Below, one piece after another: positions 3,105 to 36,154 of a DNA stretch of 39,918 bases. The notes below the pieces were generated by a model. The model was not told the origin of the DNA. It searched no databases and worked only from the letters and a program-made list of their open reading frames with translations. This DNA is from a virus. The stretch's first letter is position 1. Every line of letters starts with the position of its first letter. Location: UHGV virus genome UHGV-0076060; one strand, given 5' to 3'. The position numbers and the translations under genes were made by a program.

Positions 3105-3402
3105 GTTTAGACCTCGTTATTTTGAAAATCTGAACGACGTTACCGCGCGTTTTAATAACCGCAGCAAGCATGACAGCGTTGATAATGACCTCAGATAAAT
3201 CCACAGCCATTGGCGTGCGTAACCAGATTGCATAGACGACACGAACTGGAATACTGGCTGCAGCAACAATCAGGAAATAAGCAAGCCATCCCCCCCATCT
3301 TCGGTGTTGTGAACCGTTACGCCGGAAAGTGACAACGCGAATTGCTATGCCAGTACAAATAACTGCATTGGTGATAAGCAAAAAAAACTCATGCGTTACC
3401 AT
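3094..3402 (-). CDS. holin/antiholin-like small membrane protein (102 aa)
   Basis: Three predicted TM helices, immediately upstream of endolysin with overlapping boundaries. Confidence 0.55.
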
Positions 3403-3805
3403 CGTCTTTTCTCCCCGGAATTAACTCGCGTGGATTATCGGAACGGTGATAGAGCCAGATGCCAATTCGTACTGCGACGATTGCTGACACAAATGCGCCA
3501 GCAGAGAAAACAATCCCTTTCTCGAAAGAGTCCTGCGTGATGGTAGGTATCAGGCTGGCTATGCCGATAAGAATTGATGCTGCTGGTTTGTAGAAAAGAA
3601 GTCCGCAGAGAAAACTAAGCATCGACAAGAGTACGCGACGACGAATTGGGTACTCTACCGCAGAGGTAACAAAAATTACCGCGCCAGCCAAAGCTCCCAA
3701 AGCAACCTCAGGAGGCACTCCTGCTATCACCGCCGCCAGAGAACTCATGCTAAGCCACTGATTTAATGTTTCACTGGTTAGTTGAGCTGACATATTTTCC
3801 ACCAT
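3389..3805 (-). CDS. holin-like multi-TM protein (138 aa)
   Basis: Several hydrophobic helices, charged C-terminus, first gene of lysis cassette; start may be the internal Met (MSAQLT). Confidence 0.55.
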   Translation of the reverse strand: MVENMSAQLTSETLNQWLSMSSLAAVIAGVPPEVALGALAGAVIFVTSAVEYPIRRRVLLSMLSFLCGLLFYKPAASILIGIASLIPTITQDSFEKGIVFSAGAFVSAIVAVRIGIWLYHRSDNPRELIPGRKDDGNA

Positions 3806-4014
3806 TTATATGCATAACGACCCCCTAAATAGTAAAGCATCATGCATGATAAACCATTTATGGTTTTTTGTTACCCTGGCATCGTAAATCCCCTGCCTTT
3901 GATGTCGATAATAAGGCTCGCCTTTTACATAACTCTGAAGAGATTGCAGTACAGAAATTATTTAAAATATAGAGGCTTAGTTGAATTCCGCGCCATCAAA
4001 TGGCGCGGTAGCAG

Positions 4015-6649: not shown

Positions 6650-6753
6650 GTTAAATCTCCAGATAGTCGCAGCACCCGTTGCGCCGCATATCTGGTTATT
6701 CTATTACCCAAAAAACCATATATGGATAGAAAGGCTGTGAATATGAATAGATA

Positions 6754-6768
6754 TTACCTTTCAGGTAA
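6754..6768. promoter_or_regulatory. ATTACC-N5-GGTAA operator-like palindrome (copy 1)
   Basis: TTACCtttcaGGTAA; 16 bp identical to the copy at 26545; about 105 bp upstream of the tailspike start. Confidence 0.5.
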
Positions 6769-6805
6769 TTTGCAAAACGTGCTGGATAGCAAACAAATTA
6801 TTTGC

Positions 6806-6825
6806 TACTGTATAAATATACAGTT
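6806..6825 (+). promoter_or_regulatory. LexA (SOS) box overlapping promoter of downstream small gene
   Basis: TACTGTATAAATATACAGTT fits the CTGT-N8-ACAG consensus with AT-rich spacer; overlaps a TATAAAT -10-like element 20-40 bp upstream of the ORF. Confidence 0.7.
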
Positions 6826-6845
6826 ATTGCATGGAGAAGATTAAG

Positions 6846-7103
6846 ATGCAGCAGTATCACTATCCACTGGAAGACGGATTTACCGAAAGGATTCACACGC
6901 CGGGAGGCGTCAGGTCACTGGTGGAGGGATCGCACTTGATGAAATTACTCCGGGATCTCGATAAGGATGGATTTAATGTCGATGGCCCACTTGCTGAACT
7001 GACTGCACTGATTAACTACGTCACCAGCTCACAGATGTCTATGCGGGATCTGCAAACACATCTCGACTATTGTGCCGAACAATTACGAAAACAAACCACA
7101 TAA
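6846..7103 (+). CDS. small SOS-controlled protein (85 aa), putative antirepressor
   Basis: RBS GGAGAAG before ATG at 6846; about 44% identity over ~45 aa to the C-terminal domain of the Bro-N protein at 8252..8947; preceded by LexA box. Confidence 0.6.
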   Translation: MQQYHYPLEDGFTERIHTPGGVRSLVEGSHLMKLLRDLDKDGFNVDGPLAELTALINYVTSSQMSMRDLQTHLDYCAEQLRKQTT

Positions 7104-7126
7104 AAAAAAAGGCCGCAAGAGCGGCC
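7102..7126. terminator. bidirectional terminator between convergent genes
   Basis: Hairpin GGCCGC-aaga-GCGGCC with A9 tract on one side and T-rich run on the other. Confidence 0.65.
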
Positions 7127-7854
7127 TATCGTTTCGCTTTGTGCTCGTCCCAGCACGTTTTGCACCATGCCATTAAGCCGTCCGCATTTTGATTATTAGA
7201 GTAAAAGCTGGTGCGTTTTCTGCGGACATTACAAATTGGGCACCACTTCATATGGCGTGTATTCTTTGGGCCATCGAGACACCTTGCACACCACTTAGTC
7301 AATCCATCTGGATTTTTTGACGATTTCCTGAATTTTTCATATGGAAGGTTTATTCTGCATCGCAAACACTGCTTACTACCACTTGAAACTCTGTTAGCTG
7401 ATTCTTCTTGTGATGGCGATACAGAAGGTATTCTTGCTGGCTCAGATACTACCTGAGGAGCTTTTTTAGGTAACTGAGACGATATGTCATCACCTGGGAA
7501 TCTGTCATGATATGCCGGACGCGTTGACACTCCAGGTGGAAGCTCTGCTGTAAATGGCTTTGGCTGAATCAGCGCCCTCTCTTTTGCTGACTCCTGTTGT
7601 TTATAATATGTCTGGATTACCGATATATCATAAGCAGGATGTACTGAAATATCCGGCGCATTACCTCCAGTTTTTTGAAACTGAGTGGAGGTGTGGTCTA
7701 TCACCTGTGTACGATTAATCGTTATTTCTCCATCTTCGGTCTTTATCGTTTTGCGATGATTAACGACTGTGCGATCAGAGACCTTAGTCCTGTTCTGGTT
7801 GATAACGTAAATAATCACCGTAACAACACCAACAACTATCCAGAAAACTTCCAT
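7126..7854 (-). CDS. membrane-anchored protein with tandem C-terminal CxxC...CxxC zinc-ribbon repeats (242 aa)
   Basis: N-terminal TM helix (VFWIVVGVVTVIIYVI), Pro/Ser-rich linker, two repeats of C-x2-C-x(17-19)-DGL-x3-WC-x2-C. Confidence 0.6.
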   Translation of the reverse strand: MEVFWIVVGVVTVIIYVINQNRTKVSDRTVVNHRKTIKTEDGEITINRTQVIDHTSTQFQKTGGNAPDISVHPAYDISVIQTYYKQQESAKERALIQPKPFTAELPPGVSTRPAYHDRFPGDDISSQLPKKAPQVVSEPARIPSVSPSQEESANRVSSGSKQCLRCRINLPYEKFRKSSKNPDGLTKWCARCLDGPKNTRHMKWCPICNVRRKRTSFYSNNQNADGLMAWCKTCWDEHKAKR

Positions 7855-7874
7855 TGCTTTTCCTCACAATAACA

Positions 7875-7889
7875 TTACCTTAAAGGTAA
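7875..7889. promoter_or_regulatory. ATTACC-N5-GGTAAT operator-like palindrome (copy 2)
   Basis: TTACCttaaaGGTAA about 20 bp upstream of the 7854 start codon. Confidence 0.5.
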
Positions 7890-7967
7890 TATCTTGCTTT
7901 CAGGTGATCAAGCGTTAAACGCAATCAACCAAATACGGTTGATTTTAATATTTCTCCGCGTTTATCA

Positions 7968-7982
7968 TTACCTTTTCGGTAA
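7968..7982. promoter_or_regulatory. ATTACC-N5-GGTAA operator-like palindrome (copy 3)
   Basis: TTACCttttcGGTAA, adjacent to a TTTACA -35-like hexamer. Confidence 0.45.
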
Positions 7983-8019
7983 ATTTACATCGCACTCATC
8001 TTGTGCCATAGTAATCGGG

Positions 8020-8096
8020 CACTGGCAAAATCCAGTGCCGGGATTGGCGTCCCGGATTACTAAAAGGCGCATTCACCGCGCAAGCGGTTTTTTTAT
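8020..8096 (+). ncRNA. candidate small RNA (about 75 nt) ending in an intrinsic terminator
   Basis: No plausible ORF; possible promoter (TTTACA...TAGTAAT) upstream; two internal hairpins (GGCACTGG/CCAGTGCC and CCGGGA/TCCCGG) and terminal hairpin ACCGC-gcaa-GCGGT plus T7 tract at 8075-8096. Confidence 0.3.
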
Positions 8097-8251
8097 GCGT
8101 ATAGCACGGCCACATTCGTATTATGGTGGGCTGTGTGGGGGCACCGAAAGGTGCGCCGGGTCCTTTTAGCCGGTTACGCCAACCCTGCACAGTTCACCAC
8201 CAACCGATTGGCGTCGGTAGTGGTGATTGACCAGACTAAAAGGTAACCACT

Positions 8252-8947
8252 ATGACAGCTACAAAAAGCACGTCCATTTTTTCTTTCGAATCCCAAGCCG
8301 ATATACGAGTAATCGTCATTAATGGTGAGCCATGGTTTATCGCTTCAGATGTTTGTCGGGCTATAGGCATAGCAAACCATCGAGATGCTGTTCGAAAACT
8401 TGATGATGATGAGAAGGGCGTCGCTTCAACCGACACCCCTGGCGGTGAGCAAGAATCGATCATCATCTCCGAGTCAGGCCTCTACACACTGATCCTCCGC
8501 TGCCGCGACGCAGTGACACCAGGCACTATCCCCTACCGCTTTCGTAAATGGGTTACAGGTGAGGTTCTTCCTCAGATCCGCCGCACCGGAAGTTACATTA
8601 AAAACTCGCTCCCGCAGGAAGAACGCATAAAGATGGTTGCCGACCAGGTTGCAAACGCCACAGCATCAGCAGTGATGCAGGCGATGAAGATAGAGAACAA
8701 AACCTACAGTGCCCCACTGAAGCCCGGCTACCGTAGCCTGATTCATTCGCCGTCTGGTGTTCTCGGCCTGACGGAGAACTCACTGCTGATGAATCTGCTG
8801 AACCAGTTACAGGAAGACGGGCACGATGTATCGGGAGCGGCGGCGGAGCTGACCACCATGTTCTGCTACATCGTCGGTGTGAGCAAATGCCTGCGTGATA
8901 TCCAGACCCACGCGGAGTACATCAACGACAAGGCAGGGTTCTTCTGA
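8252..8947 (+). CDS. Bro-N domain protein, antirepressor-like (231 aa)
   Basis: N-terminal Bro-N/KilA-N-like sequence (FESQADIRVIVINGEPWFIASDVCRAIG...FRKWVTGEVLPQIRRTG); C-terminal domain homologous to the 85-aa protein at 6846..7103. Confidence 0.75.
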   Translation: MTATKSTSIFSFESQADIRVIVINGEPWFIASDVCRAIGIANHRDAVRKLDDDEKGVASTDTPGGEQESIIISESGLYTLILRCRDAVTPGTIPYRFRKWVTGEVLPQIRRTGSYIKNSLPQEERIKMVADQVANATASAVMQAMKIENKTYSAPLKPGYRSLIHSPSGVLGLTENSLLMNLLNQLQEDGHDVSGAAAELTTMFCYIVGVSKCLRDIQTHAEYINDKAGFF

Positions 8948-9116
8948 CGGGCGGCGGCACAGGGATGTGCCTTTAAATAATTCTGTACAGATTGCAGGTG
9001 AATAGCTTACTATTACCTCACGGGTGATCCATAGCGATTAGGCACCGATACAGGAGGAGCCCACATGAGAAAATTTGACGAGTACGAAGGCGTTTAACAT
9101 TCGGATAGTTTAATGA

Positions 9117-9156: not shown

Positions 9157-9696
9157 GTGTTAAGTGAAGAAATGCAATTTGCCATGGCTGTGGCTCAAAT
9201 CGTAAGTGCAGTCGCGGTTTCGCTTGGCTTGTTCATAGCTATCGCTACTATTATTTATAATGTAAATACAGCGAGAAAAGTACACACTTCAGTATTCCTT
9301 GGTGAAAGCAGGTTTGATGTAGATTATAAGAAAGGCCTATCTACTATGCGCCGCATTCACGAATCGAACAAATCATTCCGCTCTTATATGTATCCAAGCA
9401 ATGGACAGGCTGATCTTACGGATGAAGAAAAGACAGAGAAGAGAGAAATAATTTACTGTCTAGGTTTCTACGAACGCATGGCTGTGAGCGTGAAGCGGAA
9501 AACTTATGATGAGACAATGATTAAGGAAGTATTTTACAGCTCCGTTGTAAATAACTATCAGATTGCGCTACCTCTTATACAAGCCATTAGAGAAAAAGAA
9601 AACATAAACACATATTTTAAAGAATATGAATGGTTGGCCACACGATGGAAGGATTGTCCATTGAAGGATAAATCCCCGTGGTACAAGTTTTGGTAA
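9157..9696 (+). CDS. N-terminally membrane-anchored protein of unknown function (179 aa), AT-rich moron
   Basis: GTG start with GGAGA RBS (alternative ATG at 9172); one N-terminal TM helix; low GC; flanked by terminators. Confidence 0.6.
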   Translation: MLSEEMQFAMAVAQIVSAVAVSLGLFIAIATIIYNVNTARKVHTSVFLGESRFDVDYKKGLSTMRRIHESNKSFRSYMYPSNGQADLTDEEKTEKREIIYCLGFYERMAVSVKRKTYDETMIKEVFYSSVVNNYQIALPLIQAIREKENINTYFKEYEWLATRWKDCPLKDKSPWYKFW

Positions 9697-26454: not shown

Positions 26455-26544
26455 ATCAATGACTCCGTACGCAATTAAATTATTACCAATTTAACCACAT
26501 ATGATTTATTTATCGTAGGCAGTTGACATTTAACGCATGAATTA

Positions 26545-26559
26545 TTACCTTTCAGGTAA
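26545..26559. promoter_or_regulatory. ATTACC-N5-GGTAA operator-like palindrome (copy 4), upstream of head genes
   Basis: TTACCtttcaGGTAA, identical 16-mer to copy 1; about 90 bp upstream of the 26454 start; TTGACA hexamer nearby. Confidence 0.5.
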
Positions 26560-26881
26560 GCAAATGGTTCATTCCGGTTATTAACCTGACTGGCTTGTCG
26601 TTAAATTGAACAGGTGGAGTGAGCTTTTATTTTGAGCAGTACGGCGTATGGCACATGCGCCGATAGCGGTCTGGATACGTTTAAGGGGCACCCTCCCTTG
26701 CTCGGGCAAACGAACCAGGTAGCCGGAATGTGCAAGTCGAGCGGTTTTATTCCGCGCACGGGGATTCACCATCCCGGCGATTCGGTGTGACGCCTCGGAA
26801 GAGACGAGGGTACAACGATGAGAGCATTTATGGAGCCGCGACAAAGTGTGGCGCCTTAACAGGCTAAGTGCTCTCAGCGTT

Positions 26882-26958
26882 GTGGCATTAGCTCAGTTGG
26901 ACAGAGCAACCGCCTTCTAAGCGGTTGGTCGCAGGTTCGAATCCTGCATGCCACGCCA
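26882..26958 (+). tRNA. tRNA-Arg (anticodon UCU, reads AGA)
   Basis: Manual cloverleaf: 7-bp acceptor GTGGCAT/ATGCCAC, D-stem GCTC/GAGC, anticodon stem ACCGC/GCGGT with loop CTTCTAA, T-arm GCAGG-TTCGAAT-CCTGC, discriminator G, encoded CCA. Confidence 0.85.
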
Positions 26959-35184: not shown

Positions 35185-35415
35185 TCATGAGTAGAAGAAG
35201 TATGCCAGTTCTGCTTTTGAGCGCAGCCATTGTCTTGTTTTACAGGCTTTAAAAAGCCCATTCATCAATACCTTACCTGGCATTTTGCGCTTACCTGTTA
35301 AGTGAGTCTGGATATAGTGACTCGTCGTTCCGGCTTCCTGTGCGAAGGCTTCACGCTCATCCGGAGTAAGTGCAAGCCAGTGCTTTTTGAAATCGAAATG
35401 TCCGTTATCGCTCAT
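35185..35415 (-). CDS. Cro/YdaS-like HTH regulator (76 aa)
   Basis: Small HTH protein (ALTPDEREAFAQEAGTTSHYIQTHLTGKR), first gene of the replication operon, divergent from the cI-like gene. Confidence 0.6.
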   Translation of the reverse strand: MSDNGHFDFKKHWLALTPDEREAFAQEAGTTSHYIQTHLTGKRKMPGKVLMNGLFKACKTRQWLRSKAELAYFFYS

Positions 35416-35461
35416 AGCTATTGCCTGATATTTATTTCAGATAATAAATATTCACCCATAA

Positions 35462-35514
35462 GGTAACAAAAATCAAGGATAGTTACCTATGGGGTGCATT
35501 TACCTGTTGGGTAA
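35462..35514. promoter_or_regulatory. immunity-region operators (OR-like) between divergent Cro-like and cI-like genes
   Basis: GGTAAC-N14-GTTACC at 35462-35487 and TTACCtgttgGGTAA at 35500-35514; candidate -35 TTGTTA / -10 TATTAT for the Cro-like gene overlaps them. Confidence 0.55.
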
Positions 35515-35569: not shown

Positions 35570-36154
35570 ATGAAAAGTATCCAGGACGTCCGCAGGCAAA
35601 ATCTCAACGACTTGATCGACCGTGAATTCAATGGTGTTCAGACGCGGATGGCAGAAAAACTTGGAACTCAGGCAAATCTGGTAAACCGCTGGGCTCTTGG
35701 CAAGAAGGTTATCGGCGACCAGGTTGCGCGAAAAATTGAAGCTGCCGCCAATAAACCCCGTAACTGGCTTGATATCGATCGCTCGCTTTCTCAGGAAGGT
35801 TTTCAGCCTGTCGGCCCAAGCGACATTGGTCAGCTGGCGGCTCACAACCTGGAACGCTGGATGAGCGAAAGCCGCGACCTTTCAACACAGGGAAAACTTC
35901 ACCGCGCATCCGGCGTCGCCCAGGTGACAATCAGCCGCCTGTTAAACAATGAGGTCAGCGTTTCCATTTCCACCCTGGAGAATGTTGCATCCGCATTCGG
36001 GCGTCACGGCTATGAATTACTGATTCACCCGCACGACCCTGCGACCATCAACTATGACCGCTCGCGCTACGCATTGTTACCCGAAACCGAGAAAGCAAAG
36101 ATCGAAAGTTACATTGAATTTGTCATCAACCAGAACGAAAAAAACAAACAATAA
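35570..36154 (+). CDS. cI-like repressor candidate with two HTH motifs and no recognisable autocleavage domain (194 aa)
   Basis: HTH-like segments (QTRMAEKLGTQANLVNRW; LHRASGVAQVTISRLL); monocistronic with own terminator; no Ala-Gly / Ser-Lys S24-type motifs seen by eye. Confidence 0.55.
   Translation: MKSIQDVRRQNLNDLIDREFNGVQTRMAEKLGTQANLVNRWALGKKVIGDQVARKIEAAANKPRNWLDIDRSLSQEGFQPVGPSDIGQLAAHNLERWMSESRDLSTQGKLHRASGVAQVTISRLLNNEVSVSISTLENVASAFGRHGYELLIHPHDPATINYDRSRYALLPETEKAKIESYIEFVINQNEKNKQ

Follow-up and report, generated by a model that had tools for sequence, protein, structure and literature searches.

Genome identity and layout of the locus

The stretch of DNA analyzed here (the window, in what follows) is the virus genome UHGV-0076060, with a length of 39,918 nucleotides, and the locus of interest lies between positions 6754 and 8947, where a small antirepressor gene (ant) preceded by a LexA box and a second gene coding for a Bro-N protein with a related domain are found on the same strand. 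Over region 6700-9000 the identity to Escherichia phage TL-2011b is 96%, and parts of the region reach 95–98% with phiV10, vB_EcoP_ZX5 (ZX5 in what follows), and O157 typing phages; the window is therefore a temperate E. coli phage of the epsilon15/phiV10-like group (Uetakevirus). Judging from its sequence, the window very probably carries an antirepression switch of the type known from Salmonella phage SPC32H, in which Ant, derepressed when LexA is removed, inactivates a non-cleavable repressor (Rep). The genes and sites on which this reading is built are the following (the LexA box, being a palindrome, is given without strand):

6806-6825: LexA box TACTGTATAAATATACAGTT, 18 of 20 consensus positions, single occurrence in the window
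6783..6811, plus strand: putative ant promoter, TGGATA (6783-6788), 17 nt, TACTGT (6806-6811), recognized by eye
6846..7103, plus strand: ant, 85-aa SPC32H-type antirepressor (SPC32H ant, 5D50_E, phrog_450)
8252..8947, plus strand: 231-aa antirepressor, Bro-N (residues 17-107) plus SPC32H-type Ant domain (residues ~148-229) (Pfam, phrog_450, 5D50_E)
35570..36154, plus strand: rep, 194-aa SPC32H-type repressor with two helix-turn-helix (HTH)-like domains (5D50_A, 5D4Z_A, SPC32H rep)

The LexA box and the ant promoter

The LexA box departs from the E. coli LexA consensus TACTGTATATATATACAGTA at two positions. It is the sole site with three or fewer mismatches to that consensus in the 39.9-kb window, and none of 100 dinucleotide-preserving shuffles yielded a comparable one. 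The mismatch scan and the shuffles thus confirm the near-consensus LexA box that a first-pass annotation of this DNA had placed before 6846..7103. The core palindrome CTGT-N8-ACAG is found in three copies (0.51 expected), the other two of which (22532 and 27074) have spacers that are not AT-rich. The -10 hexamer of the ant promoter would be the left arm of the LexA box, hence box and promoter would overlap. The CTGGATAG block and its distance to the box are kept across genera.

When the ant upstream regions of the window and SPC32H are aligned, their LexA boxes fall in register, column by column. SPC32N and SPC32H differ in this aligned region by a single base, a C-to-A change that falls in the ACAG arm of the box. 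SPC32N is reportedly, from the work of Kim and Ryu in 2013, a variant making Ant constitutively. The box is also kept in TL-2011b, ZX5, epsilon15, and Enterobacter phage Tyrion, and two Klebsiella relatives have it with one core mismatch (ATGT-N8-ACAG).

The antirepressor Ant and the repressor Rep

The ant gene is an 85-codon open reading frame (ORF) starting with the ATG at 6846, with a GGAGA Shine-Dalgarno sequence 9 nt upstream. Its product is 86.9% identical, over 84 of 85 residues, to the protein annotated as "ant: anti-repressor protein" in SPC32H and SPC32N, and a translated search with it retrieved 35 phage records, these two Salmonella phages among them. The best PDB match is chain E of 5D50, "Anti-repressor protein" (E 4.6e-47), and the PHROG match is phrog_450 (E 1e-47). 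Those E. coli phage records that were checked list the gene as a "hypothetical protein."

The small protein aligns without gaps to the 231-aa protein (residues 2-75 against 150-223, 32 of 74 identical or 43%, E 2e-16), and the paralogy to the C-terminus of the Bro-N protein thus extends over essentially the whole of it. The identity of about 44% that had first been noticed holds, but its extent had been put at some 45 residues and is actually 74.

Rep has Pfam matches to HTH families only (YdaS-like HTH at 21-61 and HTH_3 at 106-147), and a domain profile search gave no match to Peptidase_S24 even at E ≤ 1, in agreement with the earlier view of a repressor without an autocleavage domain. It is 41.8% identical to SPC32H rep at 98% coverage, with 54% identity in the N-terminal domain, where the recognition-helix stretch NLVNRW is kept, and 38% in the C-terminal one. 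The best PDB match of Rep is chain A of 5D50, "Repressor" (E 4e-42), and its C-terminal half matches 5D4Z (5D4Z_A, E 4e-20). The 87% identity of Ant between E. coli and Salmonella phages is well above the 38% of its presumed target domain in Rep; it may be that a small conserved interface is enough, or that other constraints act on Ant, its own tetramer for example.

Orthologues of all three SPC32H parts are thus present in the window, which supports the original proposal of a LexA-derepressed small antirepressor acting against a non-cleavable repressor. With all the sequence-level defining features found, the locus can be classed as a member of the SPC32H-type Ant/Rep/LexA system.

Predicted operators

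The palindrome TTACC-N5-GGTAA, with at most one mismatch, occurs 16 times in the window (0.68 expected), and these sites concentrate between a cro-like gene and rep. The copies nearest to the genes discussed here are listed below, again without strand, together with the cro-like gene:

6754..6768: TTACCTTTCAGGTAA, operator-type palindrome ahead of the ant promoter, 38 bp from the LexA box
7875-7889: operator-type palindrome preceding the 242-aa gene of the minus strand
7968..7982: TTACCTTTTCGGTAA, a further operator-type palindrome, directly adjoining the -35 of the isrK promoter (motif scan)
9013-9027: operator-like site TTACCTCACGGGTGA ahead of the DUF4760 gene
35188..35415, minus strand: Cro-like 76-aa regulator, divergent from rep (phrog_35, E 5.6e-13)
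35452..35514: cluster of operator-type sites in the interval separating the cro-like gene from rep, with TCACCCATAAGGTAA at 35452 and TTACCTGTTGGGTAA at 35500
36212 and 36274: operator copies just after rep

SPC32H carries the same motif in its immunity region, in the same layout, and before ant. The site at 6754-6768 is kept in SPC32H, Tyrion, and the Klebsiella relatives, and in the GenBank record of epsilon15 the orthologous 17-mer before the Ant orthologue is annotated as protein_bind "repressor," adjoining an integration host factor (IHF) site. Given this enrichment and placement, the motif in SPC32H, and the repressor-site annotation in epsilon15, we take the palindromes as predicted operators of Rep and probably also of the Cro-like protein, with 6754-6768 as a probable binding site for one or the other.

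One further copy, at 26545-26559, is identical to the site at 6754 and is preceded by a TTGACA -35-like hexamer. Beyond it lie about 320 nt in which all ORFs are short (under 90 aa), and then a tRNA gene (26882-26955). The region 26524-26955 may be a Rep-controlled promoter feeding the tRNA.

The Bro-N/Ant fusion protein

The 231-aa protein combines a Bro-N domain (PF02498, residues 17-107, E 2e-21) with a C-terminal region that matches phrog_450 (residues 148-229, E 4e-36) and chain E of 5D50 (residues 150-226, E 1e-13). An AlphaFold2 model built from an 18-sequence alignment was poor (mean predicted local distance difference test, pLDDT, of 55, with the C-terminal domain mostly below 60), and the identity of this domain was settled by its sequence match to 5D50_E. 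The 231-aa sequence shares 100% identity with ORF4 of ZX5, whose repressor is in turn identical to the Rep of the window; when ORF4 was overexpressed, the titre of prophage fell from 10^9 to 10^6 and the rep transcript by 75% (PMC9782041). From these data we infer that the fused Ant domain would also bind Rep. In phiV10 the corresponding gene, p23 (3216-3895; "putative anti-immunity protein"), is the Bro-N protein frameshifted after residue 181, with the rest of the Ant domain split off as p22, so the fused antirepressor of that phage is probably defective.

The pair formed by a free-standing and a Bro-N-fused domain, which the first-pass annotation had described as unusual, is real but recurs in many relatives. 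Among 5426 complete E. coli genomes, 107 contain 80% or more of region 6700-9000, and in the RefSeq entries listed for those 107 the features are labelled "hypothetical protein" (x2) and "BRO-N domain-containing protein."

An isrK/C4 RNA module ahead of the fusion gene

Directly ahead of the Bro-N gene, and on the same strand, lie two small RNA genes with a promoter of their own:

7984..8012, plus strand: predicted promoter of the isrK/C4/Bro-N operon, TTTACA, 17 nt, TGcCATAGT (extended -10; promoter scan)
8019..8094, plus strand: isrK-type RNA with its own terminator (Rfam RF01394, 77.9 bits against a gathering score of 50)
8044-8050 and 8060-8067, plus strand: isrK decoy/target sites a1 (TTGGCGT) and b1 (CTAAAAGG), from exact-motif mapping
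8119..8204, plus strand: C4-type antisense RNA (Rfam RF01695, 77.7 bits against a gathering score of 45)
8162-8169 and 8176-8182, plus strand: C4 hairpin loop b' (CCTTTTAG) and adjacent single-stranded a' (ACGCCAA)
8208-8214 and 8236-8243, plus strand: C4 targets in the Bro-N leader, a2 (TTGGCGT) and b2 (CTAAAAGG), the latter being the Shine-Dalgarno sequence of the ATG at 8252
8133..8246, plus strand: GTG-initiated 37-codon ORF over C4 and the leader, stopping 5 nt before the ATG at 8252 ("Ash family" in the ZX5 record)

The -10 of the promoter ends 7 nt before the 5' end of the isrK match, and the promoter is nearly invariant in five phages (the window, phiV10, Tyrion, and two Klebsiella phages), in which the adjoining operator-type site (7968-7982) is kept as well. 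C4 pairing was assessed by exact-motif mapping and cross-phage comparison; a naive calculation of RNA duplexes between C4 and the candidate targets returned long, uninformative ones. The a' sequence is the exact complement of a1 and a2, and b' that of b1 and b2, and in the minimum-energy fold of 8019-8260 the isrK sites are paired with C4 (z = -5.1). The same elements in the window and three relatives read as follows (target / C4):

Window: a TTGGCGT / ACGCCAA; b CTAAAAGG / CCTTTTAG
Tyrion: a TTGGTCT / AGACCAA; b CTACAAAGG / CCTTTGTAG
Kp4865-1: a TTGAGAC / GTCTCAA; b CTACAAAGG / CCTTTGTAG
ST11-OXA245phi3.2: a TTGGCGT / ACGCCAA; b CTAAACGG / CCGTTTAG

Two sites depart from this by one mismatch to the C4 loop, namely the leader b site of ST11-OXA245phi3.2 (CTAAGCGG) and the isrK b site of Tyrion (CTACAGAGG). 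Compensatory changes in Tyrion and the two Klebsiella phages (KpOXA245phi3.2 and Kp4865-1) preserve both the a and the b pairing. Among the relatives the a sites have GCGT, GTCT, or AGAC and the b sites AAAAGG, ACAAAGG, or AAACGG. The covariation of C4 and its targets suggests distinct RNA immunity specificities, like those of P1 and P7, among the epsilon15-like phages.

TL-2011b, phiV10, Tyrion, and the Klebsiella phages have the module with its fused antirepressor; epsilon15 and SPC32H lack it. From its composition it can be assigned to the C4/isrK-controlled antirepressor operons, and the Bro-N paralogue of Ant would belong to a separate operon under antisense-RNA control, outside that of LexA. 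The 37-codon ORF may be a coupling ORF like icd or orf45, or else a mis-annotation of the RNA gene.

Comparison with known systems

The Ant-Rep-LexA antirepression system of SPC32H, with the structures PDB 5D50 and 5D4Z, was reportedly described by Kim and Ryu in 2013 (J Virol 87:11775) and by Kim et al. in 2016 (PNAS 113:E2480). SPC32H belongs to the same genus as the window, Uetakevirus; its Ant is 87% identical, its Rep is homologous over the full length, and its LexA box and operators are alike. The gene order of SPC32H (tailspike on the minus strand, ant on the plus strand, small membrane protein, 824-aa protein) is also that of the window, which has extra DNA after ant: an insert of about 3 kb (242-aa gene, isrK, C4, Bro-N/Ant fusion, and DUF4760 gene) that both SPC32H and epsilon15 lack. 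The differences are the host, which is E. coli for the window, and a Rep that is only 42% identical. As PMC7380047, citing Kim and Ryu 2013, describes it for LexA-dependent Ant in Salmonella prophages, the antirepressor is made after LexA self-cleavage and inhibits the repressor by protein-protein contact, and in SPC32H, according to a passage of PMC9638917, a tetrameric Ant breaks the Rep tetramer. The core circuit is thus already explained in this sister Salmonella phage, and nothing in the core is new. Both kinds of system represented here, the SPC32H-type one and the C4/isrK-controlled operon, are known, and the identical Bro-N protein has already been tested by overexpression as ORF4 of ZX5.

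Coliphage 186 Tum, Gifsy GfoA/GfhA, and N15 AntC follow the same logic, a LexA box before a small antirepressor of a non-cleavable repressor (PMC3121763 and, in the passages on these circuits, PMC7380047). In Pfam, PHROGs, and PDB the 85-aa protein matches only the SPC32H Ant family (phrog_450, phrog_15539, phrog_1760; 5D50_E), a result obtained with no direct pairwise comparison to Tum, and as no homology emerged from these searches we do not assign the protein to the families of Tum, the Gifsy antirepressors, or N15 AntC. The likeness to the Gifsy, 186 Tum, and N15 circuits pointed out in the first reading is therefore one of logic but not of protein homology, and these proteins are functional analogues only.

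For the RNA module the closest likeness is offered by two other systems. As in the P1/P7 immI region (Citron and Schuster, 1990), a C4-family RNA would be processed from the antirepressor transcript, two C4 loop sequences face paired sites upstream and downstream, with the downstream site covering the ribosome-binding site, and specificity variants exist among relatives; a predicted operator of the main repressor also stands at the promoter. P1 Ant is under the control of C1, C4 RNA, and Icd (PMC8201110). The window differs in that its antirepressor is a Bro-N/SPC32H-Ant fusion and its repressor belongs to the SPC32H Rep type and is not C1; as for icd, no homologue was identified, only the putative 37-codon ORF over C4. 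The order isrK with its own terminator, then a stable C4-like RNA or short ORF, then an antirepressor-like gene is that of isrK-orf45(STnc1160)-anrP in Gifsy-1, where IsrK in trans raises the translation of the antirepressor-like AnrP 140-fold via a coupled upstream ORF (PMC4825925; Hershko-Shalev et al., 2016). Gifsy-1 is another type of phage, and no AntQ gene was identified in the window.

ORF4 of vB_EcoP_ZX5, identical to the Bro-N protein of the window, has been named "anti-repressor" (Li et al., 2022, PMC9782041). That paper makes no mention of LexA, SPC32H, or the small Ant gene, which is a "hypothetical protein" in the record, and the LexA box, the C-terminal Ant domain, and the isrK and C4 RNAs went unrecognised in it.

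Distribution of the Ant domain

Free or fused, the Ant domain is found in 34-35 of 50,697 phage records, all of which also encode the SPC32H-type Rep family, a co-occurrence that gives indirect support to the link between fusion and Rep. An exhaustive profile search over 1.84 billion representative proteins returned only 63 clusters at E ≤ 0.001, most of them free-standing proteins of 80-95 aa. In others the domain is C-terminal and follows one of several heads: AntA (P0121), Bro-N (P0123, P0144, and P0177), Phage_pRha (P0131 and P0174), or ORF6N (P0176). The fused forms came from this search only, as a word-index protein search with Ant gave close free-standing relatives only. This pattern is the domain shuffling of phage regulators of the KilA-N/Bro-N type, reportedly described by Iyer, Koonin and Aravind in 2002 and long familiar. 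By its architecture, Bro-N plus a variable C-terminal module, the fusion can be placed among the Bro-N (KilA-N-like) domain-shuffled phage antirepressors.

The records of TL-2011b and HEMP4 each have a third Ant-like place by tblastn, compared to the two copies of the window, and some relatives may carry a third antirepressor module. A match to the P22-type sar antisense RNA is found in TL-2011b at 7368-7435.

Proposed mechanism and alternative explanations

In the lysogen, host LexA bound at 6806-6825 would overlap the ant promoter and keep Ant off, and Rep, presumably not cleavable through RecA because it has no S24 domain, would hold the lytic promoters through the TTACC-N5-GGTAA operators. 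Upon DNA damage the SOS response would remove LexA and Ant would be made, bind the C-terminal domain of Rep, and take Rep off its operators, turning the lytic genes on. This last step is proposed for the window because it has been shown for SPC32H, given the 87% (Ant) and 42% (Rep) identities. The isrK promoter would be sensitive to Rep, with C4 holding the fusion off at translation by pairing with its Shine-Dalgarno sequence and isrK, which bears the same target sites, competing for C4. The fusion would then be made once isrK exceeds C4 and Rep is missing or has been inactivated, either early in infection (anti-immunity, as the phiV10 annotators guessed) or after Ant has fired (positive feedback), and its Ant domain would in turn bind Rep.

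Several observations weigh against this picture. The ant promoter was not called by a simple consensus promoter scan, its hexamers being weak, and the operator at 6754-6768 lies upstream of the presumed -35 and might serve the divergent tail-fibre gene instead. The Ant-Rep interface is an assumption, since the Ant-binding C-terminal domain of Rep is the part that has only 38% identity to SPC32H. For the binding of the fusion to Rep the evidence is domain homology plus one overexpression experiment that had no mechanistic controls, and the truncation in phiV10 implies that the fusion is dispensable for at least one viable phage.

Three other explanations can be set against the SPC32H-type switch and its extension to the fusion. 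The LexA box might chiefly govern another gene, such as the tail-fibre gene, or be a chance palindrome, with ant responding to some other cue. Box, ant, and tail-fibre gene do share the same divergent intergenic region of 196 bp (6650-6845), in which the consensus scan found no strong sigma-70 promoter. Yet the box is 20 nt from the ant start codon as against some 157 nt from that of the tail-fibre gene, its position is kept across four host genera, and SPC32H and SPC32N, compared over the aligned ant upstream region, differ nowhere but inside it, and so this explanation is highly improbable. Chance, in particular, is ruled out by the shuffles, none of which came as near to the consensus, and by the conservation across genera. 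Even less credible is that Rep is inactivated by RecA-stimulated self-cleavage through an unrecognised protease fold, leaving Ant as an accessory. It has the general precedent of lambda-type repressors and no specific support was found for it, whereas Rep lacks an S24 match at the permissive threshold used and its C-terminal region matches HTH families and the 5D4Z domain of SPC32H, which serves in oligomerisation and Ant binding and is not a protease.

More weight has to be given to the idea, still unlikely in our view, that the Bro-N protein does not act on Rep at all. Its Ant domain would then be mainly an oligomerisation (tetramerisation) module, with which the fusion co-assembles with Ant as a modulator or targets its DNA-binding Bro-N head elsewhere. 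The tetramer described for SPC32H Ant in PMC9638917, in the passage already referred to, fits this idea, as part of the conserved surface could serve self-association; so do the joining of the domain to four different N-terminal heads of DNA-binding type and the tolerance of phiV10 to the loss of the C-terminal half of the domain. What speaks for an action on Rep is that overexpression of the identical ORF4 of ZX5 brought down both lysogeny and the rep transcript, that fused Ant domains occur only in phages encoding an SPC32H-type Rep, and that the C4- or isrK-controlled operons of P1 and Gifsy-1 encode repressor-inactivating proteins.

Neighbouring genes

The remaining features of the locus lie on both sides of the RNA module:

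7110..7127: GC-rich hairpin between the convergent ant and 242-aa genes, with a 7-bp stem and a T8 run on the minus strand
7126..7854, minus strand: 242-aa ORF placed between ant and isrK, with a transmembrane helix in its N-terminal part and a Cys-rich zinc-ribbon in its C-terminal part
9157..9696, downstream of the Bro-N gene: DUF4760 protein of 179 aa with an N-terminal transmembrane segment

The hairpin is a predicted terminator. The 242-aa protein has weak Stc1, endonuclease VII, and Lar-like matches and belongs to phrog_6762; the insertion that carries its gene is present in TL-2011b (as a misc_feature only) and absent from phiV10, ZX5, and SPC32H. The DUF4760 gene may be a moron or an exclusion gene. 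With PADLOC, none of the Bro-N, 242-aa, and DUF4760 proteins matched a defence system.

Two antirepressors in one phage

Going beyond the SPC32H-type core, we tentatively put forward a two-input switch made from one repressor-binding module used twice, a possibility that we regard as somewhat less likely to be right than wrong. The free Ant would read LexA and the Bro-N-fused copy the state of Rep and the balance between isrK and C4. The firing of the first could derepress the second, giving positive feedback and commitment, or the second could provide anti-immunity at the time of infection, with RNA specificity types like those of P1 and P7; perhaps mixed oligomers are formed. The Ant fold of SPC32H would in this case be a mobile "warhead" set on Bro-N, AntA, Rha, or ORF6N heads. 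We found no published description of either the two-input switch or the mobile warhead, nor of two antirepressors of one phage that share a Rep-directed domain, nor of a fused antirepressor under C4/isrK and probably also Rep control with co-varying RNA specificity types, nor of the small SOS-controlled Ant that goes unannotated in E. coli phages and prophages.

For phiV10-like prophages, including those of O157 and other pathogenic E. coli, the true SOS sensor would thus be a gene that is currently unannotated, which gives its recognition a practical value for annotation. A single phage appears to possess two antirepressors with the same Rep-directed domain, one under the control of LexA and the other under that of an antisense RNA and the repressor, and such a phage would lend itself to the study of how induction routes that depend on SOS combine with those that do not.

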